A stretch of DNA of 64,000 nt. Origin: a virus. Where the stretch lies: positions 32,001-96,000 of the IMG/VR virus record IMGVR_UViG_3300050821_003907; one strand, 5' to 3'. The first letter of the stretch is position 1, and each line of letters begins with the position of its first letter. The position numbers and the translations under genes were made by a program. The notes under the pieces were generated by a model. The model ran no database searches. It was not told the origin of the DNA and saw only the letters and a list, made by a program, of their open reading frames with translations. Shown piece after piece: positions 1 to 18,557 of this stretch.

Positions 1-75
1 GTTCACTATTACCCGTCAGTGCCTATTGACCCGGAAAAGCGCATACCGGTAACACTCCCTCCGCCAGAACTTTAG
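1..75 (+). CDS. 3' end of upstream gene (partial; prohead protease/scaffold by position only)
   Basis: Frame open from base 1 to TAG at 73-75 (VHYYPSVPIDPEKRIPVTLPPPEL*), directly upstream of the capsid promoter. Confidence 0.3.
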   Translation, partial: VHYYPSVPIDPEKRIPVTLPPPEL

Positions 76-132: not shown

Positions 133-202
133 GGATAGTGAAATGCCGTGGCCGTAAAAGCCGGAGCCGGTGCCAGCAATTAAACCTAGAAAGGTTAAGC
201 TA

Positions 203-1480
203 GTGGCATCTGAAGTCGCAAAGAGGCTTCGTGACCGGCGCTTGAACGTCTGGAACGAGGCCAAGGGCATTGCAGAGAGCGCTGCTGATGAGAACCGCTC
301 CTTTACCCCGGATGAGCAGGGTAAGTGGGAGGCTCTTCAGGAAGAGCTTGGCAACATTGACACTCGCCTCAAGGCCGTTCTCGACACCGAGAAGCGCGCC
401 AAGGAAGCTGACGACGCTTACGACGAGCTGAGTGGCCGTAAGGCTGAGCGCAGCGTGCAGCAGGCGGGTGGTCCTCAGTACGTTGAGGAGCTGCGCCGTT
501 GGGCACGCGGCGAAGAGGGCAGCAAGTCTGTCTTCGAAGTTCGCCGTCAGGCACCGGGACCGGTTAACTACCGTGTTCTGACCACGGCAGGCGCTGGTTC
601 CGGAACTAACGCTTCCGGTATCATCCCGACTGACTTCTACGACCAGCTCATCGCGTACCTGATTGAAGTTTCCGGCATCATGCAGTGTGGGCCCACGGTC
701 CTTAACACTGGCGGTGGCGAGACTCTCCAGATTCCGAAGGCCCTGACTCACACCACGGCAACGTCCGCTGGCCAGAACGCAAGCCTTCCGACCGCTGACC
801 CGACCTTCACGCTCACCACCCTTGGTGCGCAGAAGTTCGGTGTCCTGATTCAGGTCGCTCGCGAACTGATTGACGACACTGCGGTTGACCTGCTCGGCTA
901 CCTCGCAATGAGTGCTGGCCGTGCGCTGGGTAACTCCTTCGGTACCTCCCTGGTTAACGGCACCAACGGCATCTCCGGTGGCCTTACGTCCCTCGCGGGC
1001 GCAACCCCGGCTGTCACTGGTGGCCTGACCTCTGCTATCTCCGGTAACGGCGTGGCAACCGGTGGCGCAACATACGCCAACCTGGTTGACATGGAGTACT
1101 CGGTTATCGCTCCCTACCGTCAGTCCCGTAGCTGCTACTGGCTCGCTGCTGACAAGACTGTTGGTTCCTTCCGCAAGCTGACCGACAACAACGGTCGCCC
1201 TGTCTGGGAGCCTTCCGCAGTCCTCGGTGCGCCGGACCTGCTTCTGGGCAAGCCGCTAGTTGCAGACCCGTACATGCCTGCAATCGGCACAAGCGCGCTG
1301 TCCATCGCGTTCGGTGACTTCGCTCAGTACTTCATCCGCCTTGTCGGTGGAGTTCGATTCGAGCGTAGCGACGACTTCGCATTCGGGTCTGACCTGGTGA
1401 CCTTCCGTGCACTACTCCGTGGTGACGGTACACTGGTAGACACCAACGCAATCAAGATGTTCAAGGGCGGCGCAAGCTAA
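203..1480 (+). CDS. Major capsid protein, HK97 fold
   Basis: N-terminal coiled-coil delta domain; motifs IIPTDF, KFGVLIQVARELIDD, DNNGRPVWEP, LLGKP, FGDF, RFERS; GTG start at 203 follows SD AGAAAGG. Confidence 0.93.
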   Translation: MASEVAKRLRDRRLNVWNEAKGIAESAADENRSFTPDEQGKWEALQEELGNIDTRLKAVLDTEKRAKEADDAYDELSGRKAERSVQQAGGPQYVEELRRWARGEEGSKSVFEVRRQAPGPVNYRVLTTAGAGSGTNASGIIPTDFYDQLIAYLIEVSGIMQCGPTVLNTGGGETLQIPKALTHTTATSAGQNASLPTADPTFTLTTLGAQKFGVLIQVARELIDDTAVDLLGYLAMSAGRALGNSFGTSLVNGTNGISGGLTSLAGATPAVTGGLTSAISGNGVATGGATYANLVDMEYSVIAPYRQSRSCYWLAADKTVGSFRKLTDNNGRPVWEPSAVLGAPDLLLGKPLVADPYMPAIGTSALSIAFGDFAQYFIRLVGGVRFERSDDFAFGSDLVTFRALLRGDGTLVDTNAIKMFKGGAS

Positions 1481-1495: not shown

Positions 1496-1535
1496 GAAAA
1501 AGGCCGGTAGCCGGTATCGGCTGCCGGTCTTTTTC
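1496..1535 (+). terminator. Rho-independent terminator (possibly bidirectional)
   Basis: GAAAAAGGCCGGTAGCCG-GTAT-CGGCTGCCGGTCTTTTTC. Confidence 0.88.
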
Positions 1536-2101: not shown

Positions 2102-2641
2102 ATGGCTGTTAACCCTAAGGAAGGTCAGGCCCTGGCTTCGACCACGGTGCCTGCCCGTGAGCAGATGGTTGGCCGTGCTGGTCGCGCTGGCGGCGAGGAC
2201 GTAACCAACGAGCCGGGTCAGTACCCGGCTGACCTATTCGGCGTGGCCCTGCCTCAGGGTACCGGTGCTCCCGGTACTGCTGGGTCTAGCCCGACCGATG
2301 TAGCAGCAGATGCCACCAACATGCCCGGTCAGCTTGACGAAGACTTCTCAGGTCTTGGTCCGAATGACACGGCTGAAACTGGCTCGCCTGGCACGCAGGG
2401 CGTAGTTAACGCTTCTGGTGGCGACACTGTTACCTACACTCCTCCCGGTTACCTTGATGGCGGACCTTTCCGTGAGGCAACTGCACAGGGTCACGTGGAT
2501 GGCATGGGCGACTGGTCCCAGGCCAATACTGACGGCTATGCGGGTGGACCCACCCTTCCCGGTCTTGAGGGCAACCGCCCGACGAGCACCGGTGCAGGCT
2601 CTGGCCGTACCCTGCGTGGCGGACGTGCGGTAAAGCCGTAA
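2102..2641 (+). CDS. Gly/Pro/Thr-rich hypothetical protein
   Basis: SD AAAGG; internal repeat D(V/A)TN(E/M)PGQ...G(A/S)PGT. Confidence 0.7.
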   Translation: MAVNPKEGQALASTTVPAREQMVGRAGRAGGEDVTNEPGQYPADLFGVALPQGTGAPGTAGSSPTDVAADATNMPGQLDEDFSGLGPNDTAETGSPGTQGVVNASGGDTVTYTPPGYLDGGPFREATAQGHVDGMGDWSQANTDGYAGGPTLPGLEGNRPTSTGAGSGRTLRGGRAVKP

Positions 2642-2876: not shown

Positions 2877-3158
2877 GTGGAAGACCTTAGCCACATGCCC
2901 CTGGCCAAGCACGCGCTTGTCGCTGGAAGCTCAATGGCAGCGGGTAACACCGTTAACACAACTGCGGAGAAGTACGCTATGACTTCACCCGGCAGTGCGC
3001 CTGTAGACCCTTTGCCTGCCAAGGAAGAGCTAGACGACCCGAATATCGAAGACAGTCCTATGGACAAGGACCCGCGCGCAACAGTGATGGAGCGTGCTGG
3101 ACGAGGCAGTGACTACTCCGCGCCTACACTGGAATGGAAGGAATGCGCCAATGGCTAG
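2877..3158 (+). CDS. Small acidic hypothetical protein
   Basis: Strong SD AAAGGAGG, GTG start. Confidence 0.65.
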   Translation: MEDLSHMPLAKHALVAGSSMAAGNTVNTTAEKYAMTSPGSAPVDPLPAKEELDDPNIEDSPMDKDPRATVMERAGRGSDYSAPTLEWKECANG

Positions 3159-3396
3159 CAACTGGGGTCCTACCGAGCACCCGGTAGAGCATGACCACGT
3201 AGAAGACGGCCCGGATGTTTACATGGGCACGCCGGACGACGAGCTTAACAAGTACAAGTACGACGAGACTGACGGTCGTGAGACTGGCGGTGCAGGCGTA
3301 TGGAAGAAGGTTGACCACTGCTCAGGTGAGGCTGGCGCTAATGGGACTGCAACTAGCGGATTCCCTGACGGCCCCGGTCCTTGGAAGCAGACCTAG
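3151..3396 (+). CDS. Small acidic hypothetical protein
   Basis: ATG at 3151 overlaps the previous stop; purine-rich SD. Confidence 0.6.
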   Translation: MASNWGPTEHPVEHDHVEDGPDVYMGTPDDELNKYKYDETDGRETGGAGVWKKVDHCSGEAGANGTATSGFPDGPGPWKQT

Positions 3397-3417
3397 GTCT
3401 AAAGAGCCTGATGCCCC

Positions 3418-3663
3418 GTGAGTATAGAAGCTACAGCGAGGGCACTAGCGCGCATAGAGGGCACGAGCTTTGCGCATCGTTGCCGTAATGGCAGTATGCG
3501 CAATGAAATAGTGACCTTCGCATCCAGTAACGTCGGGTGGGTTCTCCTGCCTCGCACCCAGTATTCAGTGCCGTCAATCGAATGCCCAGGCTGTCACAAC
3601 GTGGCGGTCTGGGTAGACGAAACTAGCGCATGGCGCGTACTGGCGGAGGGATTCCTCCAGTAA
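3418..3663 (+). CDS. Hypothetical protein with CxxC
   Basis: 81-aa ORF with CPGC; TAATG coupling to the next gene. Confidence 0.5.
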   Translation: MSIEATARALARIEGTSFAHRCRNGSMRNEIVTFASSNVGWVLLPRTQYSVPSIECPGCHNVAVWVDETSAWRVLAEGFLQ

Positions 3664-4118
3664 TGAGCCGCTTCCAGGACCACTTTCGGCCAACCATATT
3701 TGGCTTGGCTGACGGAATGATGTCCCTCCTGGGAGTAATACTTTACCTGCTAGGACATCAAGACCTCATATTCCTGACTGCTGTATCCGGAGCTATAACT
3801 TCAGCTCTGTCGATGGGCGGCAGTGAATTCTTGTCGGATAGTGATAATGGCCTTAGAGCCTCTGCAATCATGGGCGGTGCCACCGGCATCGGGGCAATAC
3901 TGCCCGCTCTCCCGTTCGCTTTCATGCACGGAACACCCGCGTTTGTGCTAATGATTGCCATTTCATTCGTAATTGCCGTAGGCGTAGGGTGCATACGAGC
4001 TAAGGCTAGGGGCAAGAAGATAACGGTATTTACTGTCGGCAGTACTGTATTGCTGTTTGCCATTATCATAGCTGTAGGAAGCTTGGTCACCGTGTTCCTT
4101 CCTGGAGGCGCTGGTTAA
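3663..4118 (+). CDS. VIT1/CCC1-family membrane protein (Fe/Mn transporter-like)
   Basis: IFGLADGMMS and SGAITSALSMGGSEFLS motifs; about 5 hydrophobic helices. Confidence 0.72.
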   Translation: MSRFQDHFRPTIFGLADGMMSLLGVILYLLGHQDLIFLTAVSGAITSALSMGGSEFLSDSDNGLRASAIMGGATGIGAILPALPFAFMHGTPAFVLMIAISFVIAVGVGCIRAKARGKKITVFTVGSTVLLFAIIIAVGSLVTVFLPGGAG

Positions 4119-4119
4119 A

Positions 4120-4317
4120 ATGTCCCCTTGGCGTGCAGGCTACGGGTCCGCATCTAAAGTTCATATCCGGATACGCAAGGAAAGCGCCTACTGGGTGTGG
4201 AGAGTGGTGGTTAACGCAAACGACCACTGCGGGGACATCGGAGCATCGGGTGAACGCCTTACGTGGGCTGAGGCTTTTTCAGCAGCAAGGGAAGAGTGCA
4301 TGTGGTGGGTGCGGTAG
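4120..4317 (+). CDS. Small hypothetical protein
   Basis: 65-aa ORF filling the gap. Confidence 0.4.
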   Translation: MSPWRAGYGSASKVHIRIRKESAYWVWRVVVNANDHCGDIGASGERLTWAEAFSAAREECMWWVR

Positions 4318-4329
4318 ACTGTCCGCATG
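4315..4329 (+). promoter_or_regulatory. Leaderless promoter heading the glycan cassette
   Basis: TAGACT-N6-ATG, no SD. Confidence 0.55.
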
Positions 4330-5382
4330 CGAATACTGGCCATTCATGACAGCTCAGGCTGTGCTTGGTATCGAATCATCCAGCCTCTGCTAGAATTTCG
4401 TAAGCACGGATATGACGTTACCTTCGTTACTGCTCACAACGAGTGCACGCCTTACGACGAGAAACAGGGTTTTGAGCTGACCCGGAACTTCTCAGGCTTT
4501 GACCTGGTAGTAGGGCAGCGAGTCAACAAGTACGACGGTCTTAGCGTGTGGCGCAGGGGACGCACCCCGTTCAGCCGCCTGGTTTACGAGAATGACGACG
4601 ACCTGTTCAACGTGACGCAGGAAAACTGGCAGGCGTTCCAGCACTACCAGCGCACAGACGTGCGTGAAGCTGTTATCGCGGCATGTGAGGTTTCAGACCT
4701 CGTCACAGTGTCTACCGACCGCCTTAAGGCGATTCACGATGAGTTCAACCCGAACACCATCGTGCTGCAAAATCTTATCCCGGCATATGTCCTCAATCAG
4801 GTGCGTACTGAACGCAAGCGTCCCAGGGTTGGCTGGGTAGGTGGTGCCTCGCACGGGCGCGACGTGCATCTTGCGACGCCTTCTGTGAGGCGATTCCTGA
4901 AGCGCTTTCCGGAGTGGGACCTTTACCTCGGTGGCGTGGACTTCCGGCCTAGCTTTAAGGTTGCACGGGACCGCGCGTTCCATGAGCCGTGGATTAAGGT
5001 AACCGACAAGCCCGGCGCGTATTACGAGAGCATCGACTTTGACATCGGCATCTGCCCGCTGATTGACACAGAATTCGCCAAGTCCAAGAGCTACATCAAG
5101 GCACTGGAGTACATGGCACGCGGCATTCCCGTGGTAGCCAGTGACTGCGCCCCCTATAACGAGATAGTGGTACATGGCGAGAATGGCTTCCTGGTAAGGC
5201 GTGACCATGAATGGCTGGAAACCCTTTCCACCTTGGCGGGCGATAGTGACTTGCGGCACAAGATGGGCGAGGCGGGCAAGGCTACTGCTGCTGAGCACAC
5301 TATCGATGAGCACTGGACTCGGTGGGAACAGGCATACAGTAAGCTGTATCCAGCCAACTGGACTTTCGGAAGAAATGTGTAA
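4327..5382 (+). CDS. Glycosyltransferase, GT-B fold (GT4-like)
   Basis: RVGWVGG, DIGICPL...KSYIKALEYMARGIPVVASD...HGENGFLV. Confidence 0.88.
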   Translation: MRILAIHDSSGCAWYRIIQPLLEFRKHGYDVTFVTAHNECTPYDEKQGFELTRNFSGFDLVVGQRVNKYDGLSVWRRGRTPFSRLVYENDDDLFNVTQENWQAFQHYQRTDVREAVIAACEVSDLVTVSTDRLKAIHDEFNPNTIVLQNLIPAYVLNQVRTERKRPRVGWVGGASHGRDVHLATPSVRRFLKRFPEWDLYLGGVDFRPSFKVARDRAFHEPWIKVTDKPGAYYESIDFDIGICPLIDTEFAKSKSYIKALEYMARGIPVVASDCAPYNEIVVHGENGFLVRRDHEWLETLSTLAGDSDLRHKMGEAGKATAAEHTIDEHWTRWEQAYSKLYPANWTFGRNV

Positions 5383-6115
5383 ACCTGTGAGTGAGAGTAC
5401 GTCACCCCTGTTCTCGTGCTTCCTGCTGTCCCACAATAAGGGACCATATGCCGTTCAAGCTATTCAGAGCGTGCTCAACCAGACGTTTCAGGACTGGGAG
5501 TGCTGGATTATCGAGAACAGCACGGACACTACGACGCGTCCTCTGCTCAAGCAGCGCATGCCTGAAATCCTTACGGACCCTCGTTTTCACTATGAGGAGC
5601 TGACAGTTCCCCAGAACATCCGGGAAACCAAGTACGTGCCTTCATGGCTCCTGAACGTCTACCACCCTGAGGCTAACGGCAAGTGGATTTTCTACCTCAG
5701 TGATGATGACCTGTTCATGGAAGACTGCTTTGAGGTTTGTGCAGAGCACATCCGTGCCGAAAGCAATCAGCACTGGGAAGTGGCCTGGTTTGGCCTCAAG
5801 GGAATTCGTGCCGTTGACCACCGAGTGGTAAAAGGCATGCCTATCTTCATGATTCCTGCTAATGGCCCGCGAGGTAAAGGCTGTGGTAACTGGAATATCG
5901 ACGGTTACATTGATGGTGGTCAGGTCATTTACCGTAAGGGATGCCTTGAGCAGCTTGAGAAGCCGAGGTTCCCGGAGACTTACGCAGGAGACCTCGCACG
6001 CCATTCTGACGGGCTGTTCCTTAATAAGCTTGCTGAGCACTACACGTTCCAGCCCATTTACCGCACACTGGCCATTCATCGCTTCACGCCTGTGTCCACT
6101 TGGAGTAAAGCGTAA
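5375..6115 (+). CDS. Glycosyltransferase, GT-A fold (GT2-like)
   Basis: SHNKGPY..QAIQSVLNQTFQDWECWIIENS and YLSDDD motifs; start overlaps the previous stop. Confidence 0.85.
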   Translation: MCKPVSESTSPLFSCFLLSHNKGPYAVQAIQSVLNQTFQDWECWIIENSTDTTTRPLLKQRMPEILTDPRFHYEELTVPQNIRETKYVPSWLLNVYHPEANGKWIFYLSDDDLFMEDCFEVCAEHIRAESNQHWEVAWFGLKGIRAVDHRVVKGMPIFMIPANGPRGKGCGNWNIDGYIDGGQVIYRKGCLEQLEKPRFPETYAGDLARHSDGLFLNKLAEHYTFQPIYRTLAIHRFTPVSTWSKA

Positions 6116-6582
6116 TGGAAGTACAGCTAGAGAAGTTGCATTACGCGTTGCTTGAAGCTGTTCGCGTGTGGCGCAATAGTAACGCTGAGTTCTTCGGAGA
6201 TACGCAGCCTATCTCTCGTAACATGCAGCAAGAGTGGTTTGACGATTACATCGTTAATCCCTCGGACCACATGTACGCTGTTGTCGTAGATGACATCCTT
6301 CCTGTGGGAACTATAGGCATTCGTTCAGACACGCGTGAAATACAGCGTGTGATGCTAGGGGATAAAGACTACGCTCGTACAGGCGTGATGTCGCAAGCAC
6401 TTAGCTTGCTCATGAAAGCTTACGGGCCTGGTGACTTCTTCTTGTACGTTAAGCAGGACAATGATAAGGCCATTGATTTCTACCGGAAGAATGGCTTTAA
6501 CCGCACGGTATCCGTAAGGCCGCGCCCAGGGATGATTTCCATGCACCGTTACGTGCCCTACACAGAAATGATTGCATCATGA
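6115..6582 (+). CDS. GNAT N-acetyltransferase (PseH-like)
   Basis: VRVWRN, VGTIG, YARTGVMSQA, VKQDNDKAIDFYRKNGF. Confidence 0.82.
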   Translation: MEVQLEKLHYALLEAVRVWRNSNAEFFGDTQPISRNMQQEWFDDYIVNPSDHMYAVVVDDILPVGTIGIRSDTREIQRVMLGDKDYARTGVMSQALSLLMKAYGPGDFFLYVKQDNDKAIDFYRKNGFNRTVSVRPRPGMISMHRYVPYTEMIAS

Positions 6583-7739
6583 TACCTTTGTTCCGGCCGT
6601 CAGTAACTGACCGGGAAATTGAAGCGGTAACTCGCGTTCTCAAGTCCGGATGGTGGGCCCTGGGTCCGGAGGTAGAAGCATTCGAGAATGACTTCGCGGA
6701 GTACTTGCGAGTTCAGGCGCACGCTGCTGGAACTAAGCATCAGTTTGCCGCCGCTCCTTACGCTGTCGGAGTTAACTCATGCACTTCCGCACTAGAACTG
6801 GCTGCCCGGTCTCTAGGTGTTGAGAAGGGAACGGTAGTAGTTCCTGCACTGACGTTCGTGTCCACCGGCCAGGCGATGCTGCATGCAGGCAACAACGTGG
6901 TTTTCGCTGACATTGACGAGACTACGATGTGCCTTGACTGGAACGACGCTCTTAACACGCTAGAACGCGCCACAGCACGGCGCAAGGACGCCCCCAAGGC
7001 GATTGTCCCCGTATGGTACGCAGGACGTGTATCGCTGCCTCCGGCCCTCCCAGGGGGCATTACGGTCATCGAGGACTGTGCGCATGCCGCAGGCTCTCGC
7101 CTGGCAGGCACTGTGGGTAATGCCGCTGCCTGGTCGTTCCAAGCTGTCAAGAACCTCGCAGTGGGAGATGGCGGCATGGTCACCACCACAGACCCGCTGG
7201 CTTACGCTAAGCTCAAGCCACTTCGTTGGTGCGGGATTGACCGCTCTACGTGGGAGCGAGACAACAAGAAGGGCTATAACTGGGATTACGACATCCCAGC
7301 TGACGGTGAGAAAGCCCATCTTAATGACATCGCAGCAGCACTGGGGCGCGTCCAGCTATCCCGGCTGAATGAGATGAATGACCAGCGCTTCCAGATTCTC
7401 AAGCAGTACAAGTCTGGCTTTGACGGCCTGAGCTGGCTTAAGATGCGAGAAGACTTCAGCCCGTATGAGTCCAATCACCTGATGACTGTTCGCATCAATG
7501 CCGCTAACCGTGACAGGTTCATTGACCACATGCTGGCGCATGGTATTTCTGCTGGCGTTCACTACAAGCCCATTACTTACTACAAGGGCGTTTTCCCGAA
7601 CGCACGTAACTTGCCTGTTACGGAAAAGGTATGGCGTGAGCTAGTCACCTTGCCGCTTTATCCTGACCTCGTGTGGGATGACGTAGATAAGGTTATCGGT
7701 GTAGTGCGAGCATTCAGCCCGGTACGCGAGGGGGTCTAA
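6579..7739 (+). CDS. DegT/DnrJ/EryC1/StrS PLP-dependent sugar aminotransferase
   Basis: VNSCTSALEL, VPALTFVST, IEDCAHA, SFQAVKNL (PLP lysine), GDGGM, VHYKP, LPLYP. Confidence 0.93.
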   Translation: MIPLFRPSVTDREIEAVTRVLKSGWWALGPEVEAFENDFAEYLRVQAHAAGTKHQFAAAPYAVGVNSCTSALELAARSLGVEKGTVVVPALTFVSTGQAMLHAGNNVVFADIDETTMCLDWNDALNTLERATARRKDAPKAIVPVWYAGRVSLPPALPGGITVIEDCAHAAGSRLAGTVGNAAAWSFQAVKNLAVGDGGMVTTTDPLAYAKLKPLRWCGIDRSTWERDNKKGYNWDYDIPADGEKAHLNDIAAALGRVQLSRLNEMNDQRFQILKQYKSGFDGLSWLKMREDFSPYESNHLMTVRINAANRDRFIDHMLAHGISAGVHYKPITYYKGVFPNARNLPVTEKVWRELVTLPLYPDLVWDDVDKVIGVVRAFSPVREGV

Positions 7740-8335
7740 TGTATACCGATAAGGACACGCTAAATTACGCTCCTTTGTACAAGGAGCTGTTCACGAAACT
7801 GCCTGAGTCACCTCGTATTCTTGAGGTAGGCGTGTACTGCGGTGACTCCCTTCGCATGTGGAAAGAATGGTTTCCGGAATCGGTTATCTGCGGAGTCGAG
7901 AAATACACAGAATTCAAGCAGCTCTGGCCACATGACATTCCGGTGGTAGTTACTGACCAGTGCGACCAGGCTCTGGCTGCTAGGGTGCTCTTTTACTCTA
8001 ATGACGGCTACGACATGGTGATTGATGACGCTTCTCACTTCGGGATGCTATCGGCTGAGACTTTCCGCCTTTTGTGGCCTGTTGTACGTCCCGGTGGATG
8101 GTACGTACTGGAAGACTGGACTGTAGGCTTGCCTGTTAGCCCTCATTACCCTAACTTCGGTGGAATCAGCATGCTGCAACTAGCTCAGGAGTTCATTACT
8201 AATCTACGGCCTTCTACTTCAATTCACGACATGGGTAAGCACGTTGAAGAGGCAGGAGATGTAGACAGCGTTGTAGAATTGCGTTACATCTACGGAATGG
8301 CGTGTATTAAGAAGCAGGGAATCCATGAATCGTAA
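7739..8335 (+). CDS. Class I SAM methyltransferase (sugar O-methyltransferase-like)
   Basis: ILEVGVYCGDSLRMWKEWFP, DMVIDDASH, RPGGWYVLED. Confidence 0.8.
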   Translation: MYTDKDTLNYAPLYKELFTKLPESPRILEVGVYCGDSLRMWKEWFPESVICGVEKYTEFKQLWPHDIPVVVTDQCDQALAARVLFYSNDGYDMVIDDASHFGMLSAETFRLLWPVVRPGGWYVLEDWTVGLPVSPHYPNFGGISMLQLAQEFITNLRPSTSIHDMGKHVEEAGDVDSVVELRYIYGMACIKKQGIHES

Positions 8336-8912
8336 TCATGAAGTATGGCACGATACTGTTATCAACGCTGAAGTAATAAGCCATCTTGAAGGTAATATCT
8401 ATGAGGCCATTCATCGTCAGCATTTGCGTAATTGGTGCCTGGAAGAGTTTGCCCCTTACAGTTCTGTGCTAGAAGTAGGTTGCGGTCCTGGCTTGGTGGC
8501 CGAAGAATTGATGCCTCATTTCCTGTACACAGGCGTGGATAATTCCAGGTTGATGCTAGATTATGCGCAAGAAAAGAATCCTGACTTCAATTTGGCTTTT
8601 GGTGACGCCTATGATTTGGTGTTTGCCGATAACTTTTTTGACCACGTAATATCTTTTGCGGTACTAGGTCATCTTCCCGCTGATAGCATAAATCAGCCCC
8701 TGGCGGAAATGTGCCGGGTAGCTCGCAATAGTGTGTTGTTCACAGCCTGGGACAGACCGCTGAATGACGGGCACCAAGACGTGGGAAATGCCATTCATAA
8801 CGCGTACTCCGAAGATTACCTCCGCGCACAGTGCCCTTCAGGCACGATACTTTCATTCGTAAAAGACTTCGGGGTCGATACTTTCGGCTACCGGATAGGA
8901 GTAAACTCTTAG
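8325..8912 (+). CDS. Class I SAM methyltransferase
   Basis: VLEVGCGPG, GVDNSRLML, GDAYDL.FADNFFD. Confidence 0.82.
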   Translation: MNRNHEVWHDTVINAEVISHLEGNIYEAIHRQHLRNWCLEEFAPYSSVLEVGCGPGLVAEELMPHFLYTGVDNSRLMLDYAQEKNPDFNLAFGDAYDLVFADNFFDHVISFAVLGHLPADSINQPLAEMCRVARNSVLFTAWDRPLNDGHQDVGNAIHNAYSEDYLRAQCPSGTILSFVKDFGVDTFGYRIGVNS

Positions 8913-8914
8913 CC

Positions 8915-9973
8915 ATGAGGTACCTAGTTACGGGTGCAGGCGGTTTTGCTGGTCACCATCTCCTGGAGCATGTGCTAGCTAGCACAGATGCCTACGTGAT
9001 AGCTACGGACAGTTTCCGGCACAAGGGCAAGATGAGTCGCATCACGCAAGTCCTTGACGCACGCCCGGAGTTCACTTCGCGTACTGAAATCATCACGCAT
9101 GACTTGAATAAGCCATTCAGTCGCAAGCACGAACTGTGCATGAAGGACAGCGTTGACTACATCATCGCGTACGCCTCAGAGAGCCACGTAGACAGGTCTA
9201 TCGATGACCCTGTGCCGTTCGTCCAGAACAACGTCAACGTAGCTCTACAGACCATGGAGCTAGCTCGTGCGATTAATCCTAAGGCTGTCGTTTGGGTTAG
9301 CACTGATGAAGTATACGGTCCCGTAACACGGCGTAGCGTGAAGGGGGTAGCCGAATGGGCACCCGCCATTCCGTCTAACCCCTACTCGGCCAGTAAGGCA
9401 GCGCAAGAAGCAATTTGCATCTCTTACTGGCGTACATACGGCGTTCCGCTAATTATTCTTAACTGCATGAACATGATTGGCGAACGCCAGGACGCCGAAA
9501 AGTTCGTGCCCTTCGTTGTGAAGAGCCTGATGGCAGGCGAGGAAGTGCCTATTCACACTACGAACGAGCCTGTAGCAGACCCTACAGGGTCCAGGCATTA
9601 CCTGCACGCCCGTAACCTGGCTCATGCCATTACGTTCCTGCTAGCGCGTGACAAGATAGGCATGTACCCTCACTGGGCGCAAGGTAGCCTCGGCCATGTT
9701 CGCACAGGAAGGCCAGACCGCTATAACGTAGCGACAGAAACGCGGCTTTCTAATTTCAAGATGGCTTCACTGATAGCAGATTATGCTGGGTATGAACTTA
9801 AGTACAGGCTTGTGGATGCCCACACGATTAGGCCAGGACATGACGCGCACTACGGACTGGACGCTTCAAAGCTCCAGAAGCTCGGCTGGGAACCGCCTGT
9901 GCCTTTTGAGGAGAGCCTGAAGCGCACTATTTCATGGACCGTAAATAATCCTGAATGGCTATTGCCTGATTAG
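8915..9973 (+). CDS. rmlB: dTDP/NDP-glucose 4,6-dehydratase
   Basis: GAGGFAG Rossmann motif, ASESHVDRSI, STDEVYG, PSNPYSASKA, RPGHD; start at ATG 8915 (TAAACT-N7-ATG). Confidence 0.88.
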   Translation: MRYLVTGAGGFAGHHLLEHVLASTDAYVIATDSFRHKGKMSRITQVLDARPEFTSRTEIITHDLNKPFSRKHELCMKDSVDYIIAYASESHVDRSIDDPVPFVQNNVNVALQTMELARAINPKAVVWVSTDEVYGPVTRRSVKGVAEWAPAIPSNPYSASKAAQEAICISYWRTYGVPLIILNCMNMIGERQDAEKFVPFVVKSLMAGEEVPIHTTNEPVADPTGSRHYLHARNLAHAITFLLARDKIGMYPHWAQGSLGHVRTGRPDRYNVATETRLSNFKMASLIADYAGYELKYRLVDAHTIRPGHDAHYGLDASKLQKLGWEPPVPFEESLKRTISWTVNNPEWLLPD

Positions 9974-9997
9974 GACTGTCCCGGTAGGCTCGCAAAC

Positions 9998-10153
9998 ATG
10001 TGTGAGAACCCAGATAACAAGAAGAACCCCTTGCGGGGAAAGCCTGAAGTGCGCGGTGGAGAGTCTGAAGAAGACTTCACCGGAGTTGAAGAGGCCCTAC
10101 AGGCTACGCTGCCTTACAGCGATTGCCCCGACGACGTGAATCCGGATGCCTAA
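9998..10153 (+). CDS. Small acidic protein (51 aa, not in ORF track)
   Basis: TAGGCT-N7-ATG; MCENPDNKK...NPDA*; TAATG coupling to the next gene. Confidence 0.5.
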   Translation: MCENPDNKKNPLRGKPEVRGGESEEDFTGVEEALQATLPYSDCPDDVNPDA

Positions 10154-10719
10154 TGCGACTCGTTAATGGTGACCTAGAACAGTCACGCCCGTGGCGCATC
10201 AGGCGTCTCATGCAGCAAGTAGAAGAGATGGAGCCTGAATGGCTGACTCACGGTAATCGTCACGATGACAAGTACCTGCCGTGGATGCCCTTCCAGCCGT
10301 CTAACTTCATCGCGATGGTAGCAGAATGCATCACCTATACCGAGGGTTTTACATTCCTTGACGTAGGTTGCGGCATTGGCACTAAGGTAGCCCTGGCTAG
10401 TGAAGTGTTTGGCCTGGAGGCGGACGGCATTGAAGTTGACGCAGAGATGGCAGTAGAAGCACGCAAGTGGAAAACAGGTGAAATACTTGTGCAAGACGCA
10501 CTAGAATTGCCTGGCTTGTACGAGAACTATGACATCATCTGGTTGTACCGGCCATTCCGCGACATTCCTTCAGAGCGTGCGCTTGAGGAAATGATTCACA
10601 AGAACATGAAGTCCGGTGCCATCCTGGCAGGCGGAGCTTGGGAGCTGCACCCGCCAGGAAACTGGCCTATCGTAATTGATGACTGGGAAATCCGTCGCGG
10701 AGCGTGGATTAAGCCGTAA
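10153..10719 (+). CDS. Class I SAM methyltransferase
   Basis: FLDVGCGIG, GIEVD, QDAL, DIIWLYRPF. Confidence 0.8.
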   Translation: MRLVNGDLEQSRPWRIRRLMQQVEEMEPEWLTHGNRHDDKYLPWMPFQPSNFIAMVAECITYTEGFTFLDVGCGIGTKVALASEVFGLEADGIEVDAEMAVEARKWKTGEILVQDALELPGLYENYDIIWLYRPFRDIPSERALEEMIHKNMKSGAILAGGAWELHPPGNWPIVIDDWEIRRGAWIKP

Positions 10720-10740
10720 CTCCTGTGCTACACTTACGAT

Positions 10741-11433
10741 ATGAGCAGACACCCCGAAGCCGTACCTGAGTTTATAGGTGAAATACAAATTCTAGCTGTA
10801 GAGCTAGTGTCGGGGCGGCGGCGTGCTGCGCAGCGTATGCTCACTTTGTGTACAGGATGCACTGCTGAACGGTGGACCACTAAACGGCAACTACTTAAAA
10901 GCCTTACTTGTCGTGTTTGCGCTAACGAAAGTAGAGCTCTCCATACCGCACGTCTATCTCCGGGTCAGCAAGTAGGATTTTACACCGTACTTTCCATAAA
11001 ACGACGTGCATATGCTGGGTTTATGTATGAGGTACAAGATAACAGGTGTGGACACGTGAATGAGGTGAACGACGCTGTACGTCATGAGTTCAAGGGTAAG
11101 AAATCTCTATGTGAGTGTCCCCTTCGTTATACGGAGAAATCCGGTTACATTAGATGGCAGTGGCGCATGCCTGACGGACGGCGCGTAATCCTACTTGAAC
11201 ATCGTATGGTCATGGCAGGAATGCTTAAACGAGAACTATATGCGCATGAAAACCCTCATCACAAAAATGGCGTTAAGGATGATAACTGTCCTGAAAACCT
11301 AGAACTGTGGAGCACTTTTCAACCTGCTGGACAACGTATAGAAGATAAAACCGCCTGGGCAATAAAATGGCTTGAGCAATATCTGTCTCCGGAAGAGAAA
11401 AACAGTATTGCTCAAGCCTGGATTAAGTCTTAG
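10741..11433 (+). CDS. HNH homing endonuclease-like protein
   Basis: EHRMVM...HHKNGVKDDNCPENLELW; CxxC motifs; own TG-C-TACACT-N6-ATG promoter; AT-richer than its flanks. Confidence 0.88.
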   Translation: MSRHPEAVPEFIGEIQILAVELVSGRRRAAQRMLTLCTGCTAERWTTKRQLLKSLTCRVCANESRALHTARLSPGQQVGFYTVLSIKRRAYAGFMYEVQDNRCGHVNEVNDAVRHEFKGKKSLCECPLRYTEKSGYIRWQWRMPDGRRVILLEHRMVMAGMLKRELYAHENPHHKNGVKDDNCPENLELWSTFQPAGQRIEDKTAWAIKWLEQYLSPEEKNSIAQAWIKS

Positions 11434-11887
11434 GTAAGGCGTGTGATATTAGCGGCCGAGATTGCTGGCCACGAGCTGCTAGTGGAATATAGCTTAGCTG
11501 TTAGCGGCGGTGATACTTCCGAATCGATGAGCACGACCTTGGTAGTACTCGTGCCGCCGCTATCAGTAGTGGTGAATACCACTGAACCCCACCAATAGCC
11601 ATCCGTGTGAAGGTAAGCATTTCCTACAGCGTGGAAGTTAAACGCGAGTCCGGAAGATGCCTGTGATATGTCGATAGAAGCACCTAGAACAGTCAGTGTC
11701 GCTGTAGTGGCTGTACCCCCACCTGCGTATGCGTAGTCACCAAAGATGCTAATGCTTACGTAGGGTACTGAAGACAGGTCTCCGGGTGTACTTGCCTGGG
11801 GTCGAATGAAATAAAGGTTACGGTTTCATCGGCTGTCGGGCTTGTAACGCCTATGCTCAGGCCGCCATACATTTGTCCTGTAGTCAT
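11430..11887 (-). pseudogene. Frameshifted gene for an S/T/G-rich beta-rich protein (not in ORF track)
   Basis: ATG 11887 frame stops at 11756; the -1 frame is open 11825-11430 (PQASTPGDLSSVPYVSISIFGDY...ITRLT*); TG-C-TAGCCT-N6-ATG promoter. Confidence 0.6.
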
Positions 11888-11909
11888 ACTTAAAGGCTAG
11901 CACAGCCCT

Positions 11910-13027: not shown

Positions 13028-13029
13028 CC

Positions 13030-13221: not shown

Positions 13222-13315
13222 TAAGCTGAAATCAATGAAGGCTCCTAGGCGAGGAGGTGGTAGCTGTGAAAAGTAATCACTGCGCCCTAGGAGGTGGTCT
13301 TTAAATCTCGCCACA
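13205..13315 (+). ncRNA. Candidate structured RNA
   Basis: TGTGGCGAG/CTCGCCACA, CTCCTAGG/CCTAGGAG and GGTGGT-A-GCT/AGT-A-ATCACT nested stems, followed by a terminator. Confidence 0.4.
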
Positions 13316-13357
13316 AGCCCTCCACTCAGGAGATTCCCTCTTGGGTCGAGGGCTTTT
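13315..13357 (+). terminator. Rho-independent terminator
   Basis: AAGCCCTC...ACTCAGGAG-ATTCC-CTCTTGGGT...GAGGGCTTTT. Confidence 0.7.
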
Positions 13358-13395
13358 GGTGTATTCTGAGTAGGGAAAAGCTACTAGGAGGCATC

Positions 13396-14400
13396 GTGAC
13401 AAGTGCAGTTTATTATGACCTGTCCGGGTCAGTGGTGCCTGTCACCATTACGTTTACTGACCCTAGTAACCACCCTGTAGACCCCGGTACCATCCAGTTT
13501 GTGACTACAGACCCTCAGGGCCTGCAAACAAACTACACGTACACAGGCGGCTCAGGGCGCAATGTAATCACCAAGCTCGCCATCGGCGAATACCAGTTCA
13601 ATTTGCAGGCATCTGTACTGTACTCACCTAACCCGGTACCTACGGGCCTGTGGTCAGCCATGTGGATTGGCGTCGGAAATACAGGTGGACCTGGCGGCAC
13701 GACGGTACAGGCAAATACTTTCCGCATCCTGCCTTACAGCAGTGAGCCAGGGACTTCTCAAGTTCAGTGGTACTGCGGCTTGGACGAGCTGAAGTCACGA
13801 CTTAGCATCACAGACACTGCAAGTGACTATGAGATGACTACGGCAATTCAAGCAGCGACGAACTGGATTACTGAGTACTGCGCTCAGCATTTTTTCCAGA
13901 TTACAGAAAGCCGCACGTTTGCGCCTAGTGATATCTGGCTGCTCGATATAGACCCTATAGTCAGCGTGAGTTCTCTTCTCCTGGACTATGACGGCGATGG
14001 TACATTTGAAACTTCCTGGACGCAGAACGTCAACTACCAGCTACGCCGTGGATTTGAGTTGTACAACTCTAACTATCTCGGCGTTCCGCGTCCGTACCGG
14101 CAGGTGCAAGTACTCCTGGGTAGCGAAGGTGCTCCCTCTGGCGGCCAGTTCTTCCCGTTCATCTGGCCCTTCACGCACCTGGACCGGATTAAGATAACCG
14201 GTGTGTGGGGCTGGCCTGTCATCCCTCCAGCAGTATCTCAGGCTTGCCTTATGCTGTCAGCTGAATACTTCAAGCTGAAGGACGCTACCTTTGGCGTGCT
14301 AGGCGTTTCTGACCTGGGAATAGCCAAGGTTGGGTCTAACTCGTGGATTGTAGAACTTTTGCGGCCTTATATCCGGAGTAATCGCAAGGTTGGGATGTAG
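13396..14400 (+). CDS. Head-tail adaptor (gp6-like) with N-terminal Ig-like extension
   Basis: YCGLDELKSRL..., AIQAATNWITEYC, WGWPVIPPAVSQACLML; GTG start after SD AGGAGG. Confidence 0.78.
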   Translation: MTSAVYYDLSGSVVPVTITFTDPSNHPVDPGTIQFVTTDPQGLQTNYTYTGGSGRNVITKLAIGEYQFNLQASVLYSPNPVPTGLWSAMWIGVGNTGGPGGTTVQANTFRILPYSSEPGTSQVQWYCGLDELKSRLSITDTASDYEMTTAIQAATNWITEYCAQHFFQITESRTFAPSDIWLLDIDPIVSVSSLLLDYDGDGTFETSWTQNVNYQLRRGFELYNSNYLGVPRPYRQVQVLLGSEGAPSGGQFFPFIWPFTHLDRIKITGVWGWPVIPPAVSQACLMLSAEYFKLKDATFGVLGVSDLGIAKVGSNSWIVELLRPYIRSNRKVGM

Positions 14401-15769: not shown

Positions 15770-16328
15770 CAATGGCGGCAAGGGCATTCACACCGGACGG
15801 GGGCTGTGGAGAATGCACCCTCATGTGCGCACTGACAATCAGCTAACCTTCGGTGAGCGCGCTGCTGACATCATGCGTAACGCCTTCGGCTCCTGGATGT
15901 TCGTCGGCAGTTTCCTGGCGTTCATGGCAGTGTGGATGCTACTGAACACGGTAGTGCTTCACGGTGGATTTGACCGCTACCCCTACATCTTGCTGAACTT
16001 GTCACTATCCATGATGGCGGGCCTCCAGGGAGCACTAATTCTTATCGCCGCCAAGCGAGCTGACCGTGTAGCAGCAGAGCAGTCAATAGCGCACTATACG
16101 GAAACTTCCAAGATGGATAAGCTGCTTACCGAAAATAACGACATGACGGCGCAGATTAAAGAAGCCACAGCGCTTCTTGAAGACTTGCAAAGTGACGTTC
16201 ACGCTATCTTGCGCGCACTTAACCTTGAATCGGCAATACGAACTACCCCACCTGCACCTATGACAGCAATACTGGGAAAGGAAATAGAGCGTGGCAACGC
16301 TGACCCAAATCCGCCAAGCGCTAGCTAG
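15762..16328 (+). CDS. DUF1003-type membrane protein
   Basis: LTFGERAAD..FGSW, FDRYPYILLNLSLSMMAGLQG.LIL. Confidence 0.8.
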   Translation: MNNNGGKGIHTGRGLWRMHPHVRTDNQLTFGERAADIMRNAFGSWMFVGSFLAFMAVWMLLNTVVLHGGFDRYPYILLNLSLSMMAGLQGALILIAAKRADRVAAEQSIAHYTETSKMDKLLTENNDMTAQIKEATALLEDLQSDVHAILRALNLESAIRTTPPAPMTAILGKEIERGNADPNPPSAS

Positions 16329-16749
16329 CCAGATACAGACTTACTGCGTTAATCCGCAATTGCGAGCGCAAGCTGAACCGCTGGACCAAGGTGTAGGACC
16401 TGTAGCCCTAATCGTGCCCGGAAGCCCTTACATCAAGTACGGCGACACTTTCGCTGACTCCTTTAACGACCTTGGGCAGATGCAATTTGGCGTTTGCGTA
16501 AACCTTTGCGTGCTAATCCTGGTGTCAGACAGCTCAACAGCTGACCGCGAGCAGCAGCAACTGGACGCGTTCCTTGACCTTGGCACTGCGGCTGACCAGA
16601 TTTCCGTTCCCATGGCTATCCAGATGGACCCCACGCTAGGCGGCATCGTAATGAGCACGATACCAATTCAGGTCGGTCACTATGGTAGGGTTCCCTATGG
16701 TGGACTAGAGTACTTCGGTGCTCGCCTTGAAGTTCAGGTATTGGCGTAA
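16291..16749 (+). CDS. Tail terminator/neck protein (probable)
   Basis: MATLTQIRQALA..I; size and position upstream of the tail tube; SD AAGGA. Confidence 0.6.
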   Translation: MATLTQIRQALASQIQTYCVNPQLRAQAEPLDQGVGPVALIVPGSPYIKYGDTFADSFNDLGQMQFGVCVNLCVLILVSDSSTADREQQQLDAFLDLGTAADQISVPMAIQMDPTLGGIVMSTIPIQVGHYGRVPYGGLEYFGARLEVQVLA

Positions 16750-16765: not shown

Positions 16766-17848
16766 GTGGCACCGCGTATTCTGCTGGTTCATCCTGGACC
16801 AGATTTTTCAGTAGCGGACGTGTTCAATGGCTGGAAGTACGGCCTGGAACGTCAAGGAGCAGTTGTAGCGACCTACAACACTAACGACCGCCTGTCGTTC
16901 TACTCTCAGGCTCAGCTACGTGACTGGGACCACAAGATTAAGTGCCAGGCTTGCGACCAGTACCGGTACAAGACAGCGCTAGACGGCGAGCAGGCAATGC
17001 TGCTCACAATGCAGGGCCTTTCCCACGCAGTATGGACTTTCATGCCTGACGTGATGGTGTTCATATCAGCTTTCTACACAACCGCAGGAATGTTTGAGCT
17101 GATGCGCTTGCGAGGGCGCAAGGTAGTTCTCATCCACACAGAATCGCCTTACCAGGATGGTGAGCAGTACCTTCGGGGCCAGTTCGCTGACCTTAACCTC
17201 ATCAACGACCCCATGAACCTGGACGAATGGGGGACGCTGGAAGCCCCGGCTCACTACATCCCTCACGCATACCACCCTCTTATGCACTACCCGCAGCCCG
17301 CAGGCGAGGTACATGAAGACCCATCCGATTTCGCTTTCGTGGGAACGGCGTTCCCGTCAAGGATTAAGTTCCTGGAGCGAATGGACTTCACAGACGTGGA
17401 AGTCGCGCTAGGCGGAAGCGCCTGGGACACACTGGAGCCTGAGTCACCCTTGAGGAAATACCTGAGCCACGACCCTTCGCACTGCGTTGAGAATGCGGAA
17501 ACAGCTCGTGTCTACCGGGGTTCCCGGGCAGGAATTAACCTTTACCGCCGTGAAGGTGAGCAGCACAACGATTATGAGGGCTGGGCAATGGGTCCCAGGG
17601 AAGTCGAGATGGCTGCCTGCGGACTTCCGTTCTTGCGTGACCCTCGGGCTGAGAGCGACAAGCTCTTCCCGTTCCTGCCTACCTTCACGACCCCTGAAGA
17701 CGCCACGGAAAAGCTTCGCTGGCTGCTGGCTGACGAAGACAGGCGAGTAGGACTCGGTAACCAGGCCCGTGAAGCTATCGCTGACCGCAATTTTGACGTC
17801 CACGGGCAGTGGCTCATGCAGGAGATGGATGACTTGGGTTTCTTTTAA
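16766..17848 (+). CDS. Glycosyltransferase, CgeB/GT1_2-like
   Basis: DFAFVGT.FPSRIKFLE, GINLYR, GPREVEMAACG.PFLRD, KLRWLL.DED.R. Confidence 0.8.
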   Translation: MAPRILLVHPGPDFSVADVFNGWKYGLERQGAVVATYNTNDRLSFYSQAQLRDWDHKIKCQACDQYRYKTALDGEQAMLLTMQGLSHAVWTFMPDVMVFISAFYTTAGMFELMRLRGRKVVLIHTESPYQDGEQYLRGQFADLNLINDPMNLDEWGTLEAPAHYIPHAYHPLMHYPQPAGEVHEDPSDFAFVGTAFPSRIKFLERMDFTDVEVALGGSAWDTLEPESPLRKYLSHDPSHCVENAETARVYRGSRAGINLYRREGEQHNDYEGWAMGPREVEMAACGLPFLRDPRAESDKLFPFLPTFTTPEDATEKLRWLLADEDRRVGLGNQAREAIADRNFDVHGQWLMQEMDDLGFF

Positions 17849-18122: not shown

Positions 18123-18557
18123 GTGTCGCGTATTCACGGCCGAAATGGGATTGTGTACCTCGGTGTAAACCCCGCCGACAGTGCATCCCCCATGGCATTT
18201 GTGTCCGACTGGACAATTAACTTCACTGTTGCCAAGGTCGATGTGACGGCACTTGGCGACTCCAACCTCATTTGGGTGTCTGGTCTTCCGGACGCTTCCG
18301 GTGACTTCAGCGGCTTCTACGACACCGCAACCGCGCAGACTTACATTGCTGCGAAGGACGGCCAGCCGCGTAACTTCTACCTGTACCCGAGCACCATCGG
18401 TGTTCAGGCCGCTAACCCCGGTCAGTACTTCTTCGGCACCATCCTGCCTGACTTCGCCGTAACTGGCGGCGTGGCAGCAGCTGTGACCATGAAGTCCACC
18501 TGGAATGCTGCATCTATCGTGCAGCGTTACCCTGTATCTGGAATATCGGGAACCTAA
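18123..18557 (+). CDS. Major tail (tube) protein
   Basis: RIHGRNG.VY, DWTIN, VDVTALGD, GLPDASG.FSGFYD, YFFG; followed by a strong terminator. Confidence 0.85.
   Translation: MSRIHGRNGIVYLGVNPADSASPMAFVSDWTINFTVAKVDVTALGDSNLIWVSGLPDASGDFSGFYDTATAQTYIAAKDGQPRNFYLYPSTIGVQAANPGQYFFGTILPDFAVTGGVAAAVTMKSTWNAASIVQRYPVSGISGT

Follow-up and report, generated by a model that had tools for sequence, protein, structure and literature searches.

Genomic setting of the sugar cassette

The DNA analyzed here was a window of 64,000 nt (positions 32,001 to 96,000 of IMGVR_UViG_3300050821_003907) from the 181-kb record of an uncultured soil phage. Coordinates refer to this window unless stated otherwise, and every feature listed with window coordinates lies on the plus strand. 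The host clade is probably actinobacterial, because the relatives of the terminase are almost all actinophages.

A sugar cassette at 4327-10719 encodes, in the same orientation, a GT4 and a GT2 glycosyltransferase, a GNAT acetyltransferase, a DegT aminotransferase, three SAM methyltransferases and an RmlB-type 4,6-dehydratase. This enzyme set had been named in an earlier sequence-only reading, and profile searches against Pfam and NCBIfam confirmed every domain in its place. The flanks were also as proposed, with an HK97-type major capsid gene (170..1480; PF05065, 184.6 bits) on one side and a head-tail adaptor gene (13294..14400; phrog_442, 7.3e-19), the downstream border of the slot, on the other. 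The described tight coupling was evident at the cassette junctions, which overlap by 1-11 nt or are separated by gaps of at most 24 nt. Gene order in the head-tail block is protease, GT2, capsid, slot, adaptor, terminator, glycosyltransferase and tube.

The major capsid protein ends in a short Gly/Ala/Ser tail. Right behind its gene lies a terminator-like hairpin (1510..1528), a possible attenuator for which the evidence is weak because the overall terminator count is not above chance. It is followed by a gene for a Gly/Pro/Thr-rich low-complexity protein (2102..2641), which had no match in Pfam or PHROG and is kept in nearly all relatives (tblastn, 36-95%). Immediately 5' of the GT4 gene is a small polytopic membrane protein with TM-like segments (VIT-like; 3630..4118; PF01988, 38 bits), homologues of which (51-52%) also precede GT4 in the relatives L057 and L064. 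The operon further encodes a DUF1003 membrane protein and one TM-anchored protein.

Sugar-tailoring enzymes and predicted pathway

The RmlB-type NDP-hexose 4,6-dehydratase (8915..9973; TIGR01181, 204.8 bits, below the cut-off of 365; PDB 6bi4, 154 bits) has its true start at ATG 8915 and contains the motifs GAGGFAG, STDEVYG (catalytic TDE) and YSASK (catalytic YxxxK). The best-matching solved structures are without exception those of dTDP-glucose 4,6-dehydratases. It is the only SDR enzyme found when the genome was searched, and no 3,4-ketoisomerase was found. The DegT/DnrJ/EryC1 PLP sugar aminotransferase (6579..7739; PF01041, 267.7 bits) carries an SFQAVK lysine motif and an EDCAHA motif; it probably acts at C4, and its best PDB relatives, TlmJ and ArnB, are both 4-aminotransferases. 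The GNAT acetyltransferase (6115..6582; PF00583, 31.6 bits) is the proposed N-acetylase of the 4-amino sugar. It gave a weak PseH-type match (26.9 bits, below the NCBIfam cut-off) and accompanies the DegT lineage in every related locus having that lineage, but it could acetylate some other substrate.

Among the three methyltransferases, MT1 (7739..8335; phrog_21658) is sugar O-methyltransferase-like, its best PDB matches being to 3ssm ('Methyltransferase'; 2.1e-12) and to the demethylmacrocin O-methyltransferase 8ia9 (2e-9). MT2 (8325..8912; PF13649, 61.7 bits) and MT3 (10153..10719; PF13649, 30.6 bits) are class I SAM methyltransferases. Coupled to MT3 is a small acidic ORF (9998..10153) that is 83% conserved in a sister phage and had no family match in Pfam. 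The catalytic motifs of the cassette are intact.

Together, motifs and solved relatives support the logic of dehydratase, then DegT, then GNAT. Host-made NDP-glucose (dTDP-Glc or UDP-Glc) would be converted by the RmlB-type enzyme to an NDP-4-keto-6-deoxyhexose, which DegT would aminate at C4; N-acetylation by GNAT would then yield an NDP-4-acetamido-4,6-dideoxyhexose. These steps are predicted from enzyme families and motifs, which fix neither dTDP versus UDP nor the stereochemistry. The scores of all three enzymes fall below the NCBIfam equivalog cut-offs, so the original label of viosamine/Fuc4NAc type describes only a class of product. A sugar nucleotidyltransferase (PF00483) was absent from the whole 181-kb record, in line with the earlier statement on this point, and also from 29 related records; NDP-sugar activation therefore depends on the host. 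Host supply of the activated precursor is thus supported, and dTDP-glucose is one candidate for it.

Glycosyltransferases within and around the cassette

The GT4-type glycosyltransferase (GT-B; 4327..5382; PF13692, Glyco_trans_1_4, 44.3 bits; phrog_7162, 5e-48) has a homologue in all six complete slots and is 32% identical to gp5 of Streptomyces phage Zuko. The true start of the following GT2 (GT-A, DDD motif; 5375..6115; PF00535, 39.9 bits) is ATG 5375, which overlaps the GT4 stop.

The coordinates given in the sequence-only reading were confirmed, but the extent was too narrow, as transferase genes lie beyond both ends. A second GT2 of 213 aa (PF00535, 47.5 bits; DDD motif), encoded between the genes for the prohead protease and the capsid, reaches into the window only with its 3' end (1..75); its start, at genome position 31434, lies 566 nt ahead of it. 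On the tail side, a GT-B glycosyltransferase (16766..17848; PF13524, 54.8 bits) is encoded between the tail terminator (16291..16749; phrog_17840, 8.5e-14) and the major tail (tube) protein (18123..18557; phrog_10528, 1e-4; 47-97% conserved in relatives), a position that is fixed in 11 of 11 relatives examined. The AF2 model of this enzyme (pLDDT 86.9) had GT-B enzymes as its structure matches. None of these transferases or of the cassette enzymes has a TM segment, and all appear soluble; a separate 824-aa membrane GT2 is encoded at ~130 kb of the genome.

Conservation and variation of the slot

The same arrangement was found in the independent assemblies L002/L017 and L003, and all shared cassette genes are under strong purifying selection relative to the sister phage (dN/dS 0.03-0.08, dS ~1). 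The agreement of the assemblies and this selection show that the cassette is genuine and did not arise through misassembly.

Among uncultured relatives with capsids 52-98% identical, the slot between capsid and adaptor is family-wide a sugar-gene island of 12-43 kb, and of 111 ORFs in these slots, those that could be identified belong predominantly to sugar families. GT4, one methyltransferase (MT3, with a homologue in 6/6 complete slots) and the tail-side transferase form the family core. Accessory genes, gained or lost between relatives, include those for the dehydratase, DegT and GNAT, among others. Gene insertions and deletions within the cassette are the sole differences between sister phages: MT2 is a clean insertion, with window positions 8320-8914 having no counterpart in L002, and an HNH endonuclease gene (10741..11433; phrog_20891, 3.6e-21) stands where the sister phage carries four additional sugar genes. 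Such swapping of tailoring genes between close relatives would yield different glycans. The relative G007 has DegT and GNAT and no dehydratase at all; the pathway, which had been called self-contained, is therefore not so across the family.

Proposed glycosylation of the phage particle and alternatives

In our judgment the best reading, held with moderate confidence, is that the phage encodes a cytoplasmic glycosylation system acting on its own particle. The soluble transferases, namely GT4, the two GT2s and the tube-adjacent GT-B, would build a short glycan, which MT1 may methylate together with MT2 and MT3. The acceptors would be virion proteins, and gene position and family-wide synteny make the subunits of the capsid and of the tail tube the leading candidates. 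A virion target had already been suggested from the cassette itself; one additional transferase gene next to the capsid gene and another next to the tail-tube gene, together with the family-wide synteny, make it more likely, and it is still inferred. Capsid tails of the G-[GA]-[AS]-[ST] type occur in most relatives, and the tube C-terminus is Gly-Thr or Gly-Ser in nine of 11 full-length copies, including that of this phage. These Ser/Thr-ending tails do not discriminate, because they are present whatever the gene content of the relative. The [ST]-G-S sequon is not enriched in this phage.

The VIT-like, DUF1003 and TM-anchored membrane proteins share the operon, an observation that counts against a virion target. 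They would fit modification of a glycopolymer of the host envelope, such as a cell-wall polysaccharide, a teichoic-type polymer or a glycolipid, carried out on the inner side of the membrane with lipid-linked intermediates of the host; this could block superinfection or keep progeny from adsorbing to debris. Loci for surface polysaccharides typically combine GT2 and GT4 families with NDP-sugar tailoring enzymes, and both the pairing of the polytopic membrane protein with GT4 and the distant membrane GT2 agree with such a role. However, searches whose controls matched returned no lipid-carrier machinery in the genome (Bac_transf, Glycos_transf_4 or Wzx flippase; no initiating phosphoglycosyl transferase or WecA/MraY-type enzyme), and the cassette enzymes are all soluble. 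The genes also sit in the late virion block, and the invariant transferase between terminator and tube is hard to explain by an envelope target, which we consider rather unlikely.

In a further, improbable alternative, the transferases would glycosylate non-structural phage proteins, host proteins or a small molecule; chemical anti-phage defence suggests, as an example, that an anti-phage antibiotic of an actinomycete host might be inactivated in this way. Solved relatives from secondary-metabolite and macrolide deoxysugar pathways (TlmJ and the demethylmacrocin O-methyltransferase), a weak match to a dTDP-aminosugar N,N-dimethyltransferase, and macrolide and natural-product transferases among the GT-B matches are consistent with this. 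Such similarities are family-level only and expected of enzymes with an actinobacterial origin, and the placement beside the capsid and tube genes, kept across relatives, points to the particle. Base hypermodification of phage DNA against restriction is very improbable: phage DNA-glycosylating clusters can adjoin structural genes and the genome has a gene for a C5 cytosine DNA methyltransferase, but that gene lies ~80 kb off beside a MazG-like gene with no adjoining oxygenase or transferase, no 5hmC-type modification cluster lies beside the cassette, no thymidylate-synthase-type hydroxymethylase was found in the genome, and by type the three methyltransferases of the cassette are class I enzymes for small molecules rather than DNA methylases.

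Comparison with known systems

Particle glycosylation as proposed here has its nearest precedent in mycobacteriophages, the capsid and tube subunits of which were reported to be glycosylated at their C-termini (Freeman et al. 2023, as cited in later papers). [quoted passage not shown] Our phage probably shares with them an actinobacterial host clade. One upstream GT2-like gene of our phage matches Corndog gp37 (2e-10), and the cassette enzymes showed no significant similarity to gp35-38. Relative to those cassettes, the system described here adds an NDP-sugar tailoring route of dehydratase, aminotransferase and acetyltransferase, three methyltransferases and a transferase fixed within the tail module; glycans are reported on their virions, whereas glycosylation of this phage is predicted from its genes.

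The closest cultured homologues are in Streptomyces phages Zuko and KimJongPhill (genes 4-5) and Arthrobacter phages Atuin, Mimi and Racecar, with RmlB-like proteins 42-46% and GT4 proteins 26-32% identical to ours. The two genes are neighbours in Zuko and lie right before those for the terminase and head. The dehydratase homologue in this group is annotated as 'UDP-glucose dehydrogenase' or 'nucleotide-sugar epimerase', and no glycosylation data for these five phages were found in the literature. Unlike our phage, they lack DegT and GNAT, and this aminotransferase was not found in any cultured actinophage. The cultured Flavobacterium phage vB_FspM_immuto has a single block encoding several transferases, a methyltransferase, an NDP-sugar epimerase and two DegT-type aminotransferases; its DegT is only 25% identical to ours. 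The neighbours of this block are not virion genes but a nuclease gene and one annotated as DnaK suppressor protein. The suggestion that this cassette goes beyond phages with transferases alone therefore holds in part, given the transferase-associated O-methyltransferase of Corndog and the aminotransferases with transferases outside virion genes in immuto.

The tube-adjacent enzyme also recalls Bacillus subtilis, in which the putative spore-crust transferase CgeB appears to glycosylate the hexameric, self-assembling surface protein CgeA, priming O-glycosylation before other enzymes extend the glycan. CgeB is presumably a member of PF13524, the family of this GT-B enzyme. In bacteria, RmlB, a DegT-type aminotransferase and an N-acetyltransferase act in succession to give 4-acetamido-4,6-dideoxyhexoses, and Mimivirus has a viosamine route with those enzyme classes. 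The three classes and their logical order are the same in our phage, which differs in its scores below equivalog cut-offs, lack of a nucleotidyltransferase, bacterial host and tailed-phage particle. Like giant viruses, this phage appears to bring its own rare-sugar enzymes.

Organization of the cassette within the virion gene block

The source IMG/VR virus record is 181,160 bp long and is estimated to be 98% complete. Pfam and NCBIfam searches confirmed every domain that the sequence-only reading had named in the cassette, and the tight coupling it had described was also borne out: the ORFs overlap at their starts and stops by 1–11 nt or are otherwise separated by gaps of at most 24 nt. In window coordinates, the cassette runs from a GT4 glycosyltransferase (4327–5382) through a GT2 glycosyltransferase (5375–6115; ATG at 5375, preceded by a GGAAGAA stretch), a GNAT protein (6115–6582), a DegT aminotransferase (6579–7739), the methyltransferases MT1 (7739–8335) and MT2 (8325–8912), an RmlB-like dehydratase (8915–9973; ATG at 8915, preceded by AGGAG), and a 51-codon ORF (9998–10153) to a third methyltransferase, MT3 (10153–10719). 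This arrangement recurs in independent assemblies (loci L002/L017 and L003). Promoter and terminator scans returned no more hits than chance.

The cassette is flanked upstream by an HK97-type capsid gene (170–1480) and downstream by a head-tail adaptor gene (13294–14400). The genes 5′ of the window encode, in order, the terminase, the portal, and the S78 prohead protease; a small ORF and a second GT2 of 213 aa follow, the latter ending at window position 75, directly 5′ of the capsid gene. On the tail side, a 360-aa glycosyltransferase with a PF13524 domain (16766–17848) lies between the tail terminator (16291–16749) and the major tail protein (18123–18557). The tape measure protein (19878–28409), with tail-lysozyme and SLT transglycosylase domains, has 2843 residues, which implies a very long tail.

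Three membrane proteins are encoded within the virion gene block (3630–4118, 11935–12465, and 15762–16328), an unusual placement; one is polytopic and VIT-like, one is a coiled-coil protein anchored at its C terminus, and one is a DUF1003 protein. The proteins encoded at 12491–13027 and 14661–15560 carry Cys/His patterns suggestive of papain-like or NlpC-type hydrolases, and one of the two hits a PHROG that carries an enoyl-CoA hydratase-like annotation.

Predicted activities of the sugar-pathway enzymes

The dehydratase is the sole SDR of the genome, and its best solved relatives are all dTDP-glucose 4,6-dehydratases. Its GAGGFAG NAD site, STDEVYG, and YSASK motifs align with those of the dTDP-glucose 4,6-dehydratase 6bi4, and it carries the N-terminal GxxGxxG, catalytic Thr-Asp-Glu, and YxxxK of RmlB-type extended SDRs. 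It scores below the NCBIfam equivalog cut-off of TIGR01181 (204.8 vs. 365.1 bits) and belongs to a divergent phage lineage, with 42–46% identity to Arthrobacter and Streptomyces phage genes.

The aminotransferase matched PF01041 with 267.7 bits (cut-off, 19.8) and contains the SFQAVK motif with the PLP lysine and the EDCAHA motif, which place it in the DegT family. Among solved structures, TlmJ and ArnB match it best, at approximately 150 bits, and the seventh-ranked, 2oga (labelled 'Transaminase'), scored approximately 107 bits; its scores fall below the NCBIfam equivalog cut-offs for PseC, ArnB, and WecE. An FdtA-type 3,4-ketoisomerase was sought in the genome and was absent. Because of the TlmJ and ArnB relatives and the absence of such an isomerase, C4 amination of a 4-keto-6-deoxy intermediate would be the simplest route for DegT.

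The GNAT protein scored above the PF00583 cut-off (31.6 bits), matched PseH (TIGR03585) weakly at 26.9 bits against a cut-off of 93.1, and had weak matches in the PDB; in related loci, it was found only alongside this DegT lineage, which lends support to a role as a sugar N-acetyltransferase. Among solved structures, MT1 is most similar to 3ssm (labelled 'Methyltransferase'), which we take to be MycE, and to the demethylmacrocin O-methyltransferase 8ia9; both enzymes methylate deoxysugars after these have been attached. MT2 and MT3 are generic class I methyltransferases. No TM-like segment was detected in any cassette enzyme.

The earlier statement that no sugar nucleotidyltransferase is present held for the genome and for 29 related records, in all of which PF00483 was absent, while the controls were positive in 14 of 14 genomes. 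The phage therefore relies on its host for activation of the sugar.

Glycosyltransferases

GT4 matched PF13692 (44.3 bits) and PF00534 (40.0 bits), and only the second Glu of its E-x7-E motif region is kept. The two GT2 proteins scored above the PF00535 cut-off (39.9 and 47.5 bits), and each has the DDD motif of the family. The AlphaFold model of the tail-side glycosyltransferase (pLDDT, 86.9; pTM, 0.83) is that of a GT-B transferase; MshA, BshA, and PimA match it best in the PDB, and the protein O-glycosyltransferases GtfC, Gtf3, and SdgB also appear among the matches. No homologue of this enzyme was found in cultured phages by tblastn at E ≤ 1e-4.

Farther upstream in the genome, at 14026–15722 (L082:26–1722), polysaccharide pyruvyl-transferase-like and GT2-like genes adjoin a gene for a 737-aa glycine-rich protein (L082:2307–4520; whole region, genome 14026–18520). 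This group may be a second glycosylation module.

A variable slot in related phages

Capsid relatives with 52–98% identity, on 57 IMG/VR loci, served as the comparison set. In the tblastn matrix, many of them had a GT4 homologue a few kb 3′ of the capsid gene, and the presence of DegT, the dehydratase, GNAT, GT2, and the methyltransferases varied; HMM searches found GT2 genes less than approximately 10 kb from the capsid gene in relatives not picked up by tblastn. A PF13524 match was present in all related records that were at least 49% complete, and the tail-side glycosyltransferase lay between the terminator and tube genes in 11 of the 11 relatives examined.

The slot between the capsid and adaptor genes is 12–43 kb long. 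All six complete slots contained GT4 and MT3, and three contained an RmlB-like gene. A set of 111 dereplicated slot ORFs was overwhelmingly sugar-related wherever a family could be assigned: GT2 (6), GT4-type (4), GT17 (3), Methyltransf_24 (5), and Epimerase (4), with the C-methyltransferase domains PF08484 and PF08421 in three and with RGP, radical SAM, DegT, and GNAT also present. Several families unusual for phages were seen at L044:15317–16387 and in slots L097–L104, including a Reversibly Glycosylated Polypeptide (PF03214) homologue, GT17, PF08484/PF08421, radical SAM, and dCMP deaminase. One relative (IMG/VR 3300046517_002960) has a slot of approximately 43 kb, at approximately 132–175 kb of its contig; it is labelled 'provirus' by IMG/VR, possibly owing to its cellular-looking cargo.

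DegT and GNAT occurred together in two of the complete relative genomes, the sister phage G001 and G007 (the 115-kb, 98% complete record of locus L064). G007 has DegT, GNAT, MT1, GT2, GT4, and MT3, and no SDR dehydratase or epimerase was found anywhere in its record; its aminotransferase must therefore use a host keto-sugar. This gene content hints at dTDP-4-keto-6-deoxyglucose as a possible hub intermediate. In metagenomes, the DegT lineage comprised more than 100 clusters with 49–60% identity, many of them on long contigs.

Signs of recombination around the cassette

The sister phage shares 84% nucleotide identity and is collinear with window 1–16793 except for two indels, both within the cassette. 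MT2 (8320–8914) is a clean insertion relative to the sister, which is without it. An HNH endonuclease block (10721–11921) stands exactly where the sister (L002 13530–16283) has four further sugar genes, which encode an SDR epimerase/reductase, a GT2, a protein of unknown function, and a Methyltransf_24 enzyme. The dN/dS values against the sister were 0.03–0.08 for GT4, GT2, GNAT, DegT, the dehydratase, and MT3. The dS values were approximately 1.0–1.2 in the cassette genes and the adaptor gene, compared with 0.21–0.28 in the capsid gene and the ORFs o2102 and o11935. This discordance is consistent with exchange of the cassette via recombination, and the comparison of window 170–13027 with L002 suggests mosaic recombination around it.

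A metallo-beta-lactamase and Rieske protein, a NamH-like oxygenase (genome 114168–115556; L086:4168–5556), was found in this phage and its sister only. It was absent from the DegT-positive G007, and its tie to the amino-sugar pathway therefore stays a lead only.

Host predicted from relatives

A capsid-profile scan of 185,579 reference genomes gave a single match with 57% identity on a 2973-bp Gemmataceae MAG contig (L085; DATFWZ010000608.1), which is probably a mis-binned phage fragment. Since the scan gave only this match, the host is predicted to be actinobacterial only from relatives of the terminase, GT4, and dehydratase. The cassette had no megablast match among cultured phages. Among cultured phages, the nearest sequence relatives are gp4 and gp5 of Streptomyces phage Zuko and genes of the Arthrobacter phages. 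DegT matched only 19 phage records, none of them an actinophage.

Candidate acceptors of the sugar

Glycosylation of the phage's own virion is the explanation that we favor, at slightly better than an even chance. The position of the genes, the soluble enzymes, the missing lipid-carrier genes, and the Corndog precedent all point to virion proteins as the acceptor, as do the fixed transferases, which adjoin the capsid and tube genes across the family. The sequence-only reading stood in its gene set and coordinates, and its interpretation was partly supported. Homology of the cassette enzymes to Corndog gp35–38, the set compared, was rejected, as their best BLASTP E value was approximately 0.35. 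The upstream GT2-like gene (genome 14895–15722) alone matched Corndog gp37 (BLASTP, 2e-10). No enrichment of the [ST]-G-S sequon was found in any virion protein of this phage. The Ser/Thr C-terminal tails of the capsid and tube proteins were dropped as evidence, as they occur family-wide and are independent of gene content.

The sugar could instead be placed on the host envelope, which would fit the membrane proteins in the operon and a separate membrane GT2 elsewhere in the genome. However, no initiating phosphoglycosyl transferase, WecA-type enzyme, or flippase (PF02397, PF00953, and PF01943) was found in this 98% complete genome, in searches whose controls were positive, and we consider this destination unlikely. 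A Wzx/Wzy-type lipid-linked polysaccharide locus was ruled out as a class, since the initiating transferase and the flippase are both missing. Transfer to another protein or to a small molecule appears improbable, as the siting of the fixed transferases beside capsid and tube genes points to the particle.

Modification of the phage DNA is very improbable: the genome has no thymidylate-synthase-type hydroxymethylase (PF00303), and its single C5 cytosine DNA methyltransferase (genome 121822–122856, minus strand; L106:5792–6862) lies approximately 80 kb away beside a MazG-like pyrophosphohydrolase, without an adjacent oxygenase or glycosyltransferase. In the DNA-glycan clusters described in the literature, C5-MT, 5mYOX, and GT genes lying side by side are the defining feature. 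A DNA-hypermodification cluster of that type was accordingly rejected. A TET/JBP search of the genome carries no weight, as its control was silent.

A possible serotype island and comparison with known systems

We tentatively propose, as a possibility somewhat short of even, that a family of large soil phages keeps a hypervariable 'glycan serotype' island in its virion module, much like the O-antigen locus of bacteria. Its constant part would be two priming transferases, one for the head slot and one adjoining the tube gene, to which interchangeable genes for sugar tailoring would be added. The tailoring would draw on amino, N-acetyl, O-methyl, and C-methyl sugar enzymes and on the RGP and GT17 families, with N-glycolyl perhaps added via the NamH-like oxygenase, so that close relatives might differ in the rare sugars borne by their capsids and tails. 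Such differences would point to the phage surface being under strong diversifying pressure in soil. If virion glycosylation holds, the coat glycan would evolve fast and recombine among members of an abundant, uncultured family of soil phages. It would matter for how phage surfaces are recognized, for stability and adsorption, and for escape from antibodies in phage therapy. The cassette would also yield a compact, soluble set of sugar-tailoring and protein-glycosylating enzymes.

At least in the portion of the published work available, virion glycosylation in phages is demonstrated only for a few mycobacteriophages, apparently with transferases and a methyltransferase acting on host sugars. 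This Corndog/Che8-type glycosylation is the closest functional analogue, and the transferase and methyltransferase genes of the present phage are likewise embedded among virion genes. A comparable enzyme set is encoded by Flavobacterium phage immuto, outside its virion genes. Zuko and the Arthrobacter phage relatives lack DegT, unlike this phage; Zuko and Atuin carry the dehydratase/GT4 pair and therefore offer a direct experimental entry. Giant viruses make their own rare sugars for their coats; if the favored explanation is true, tailed phages can do likewise with rare amino-deoxysugars.
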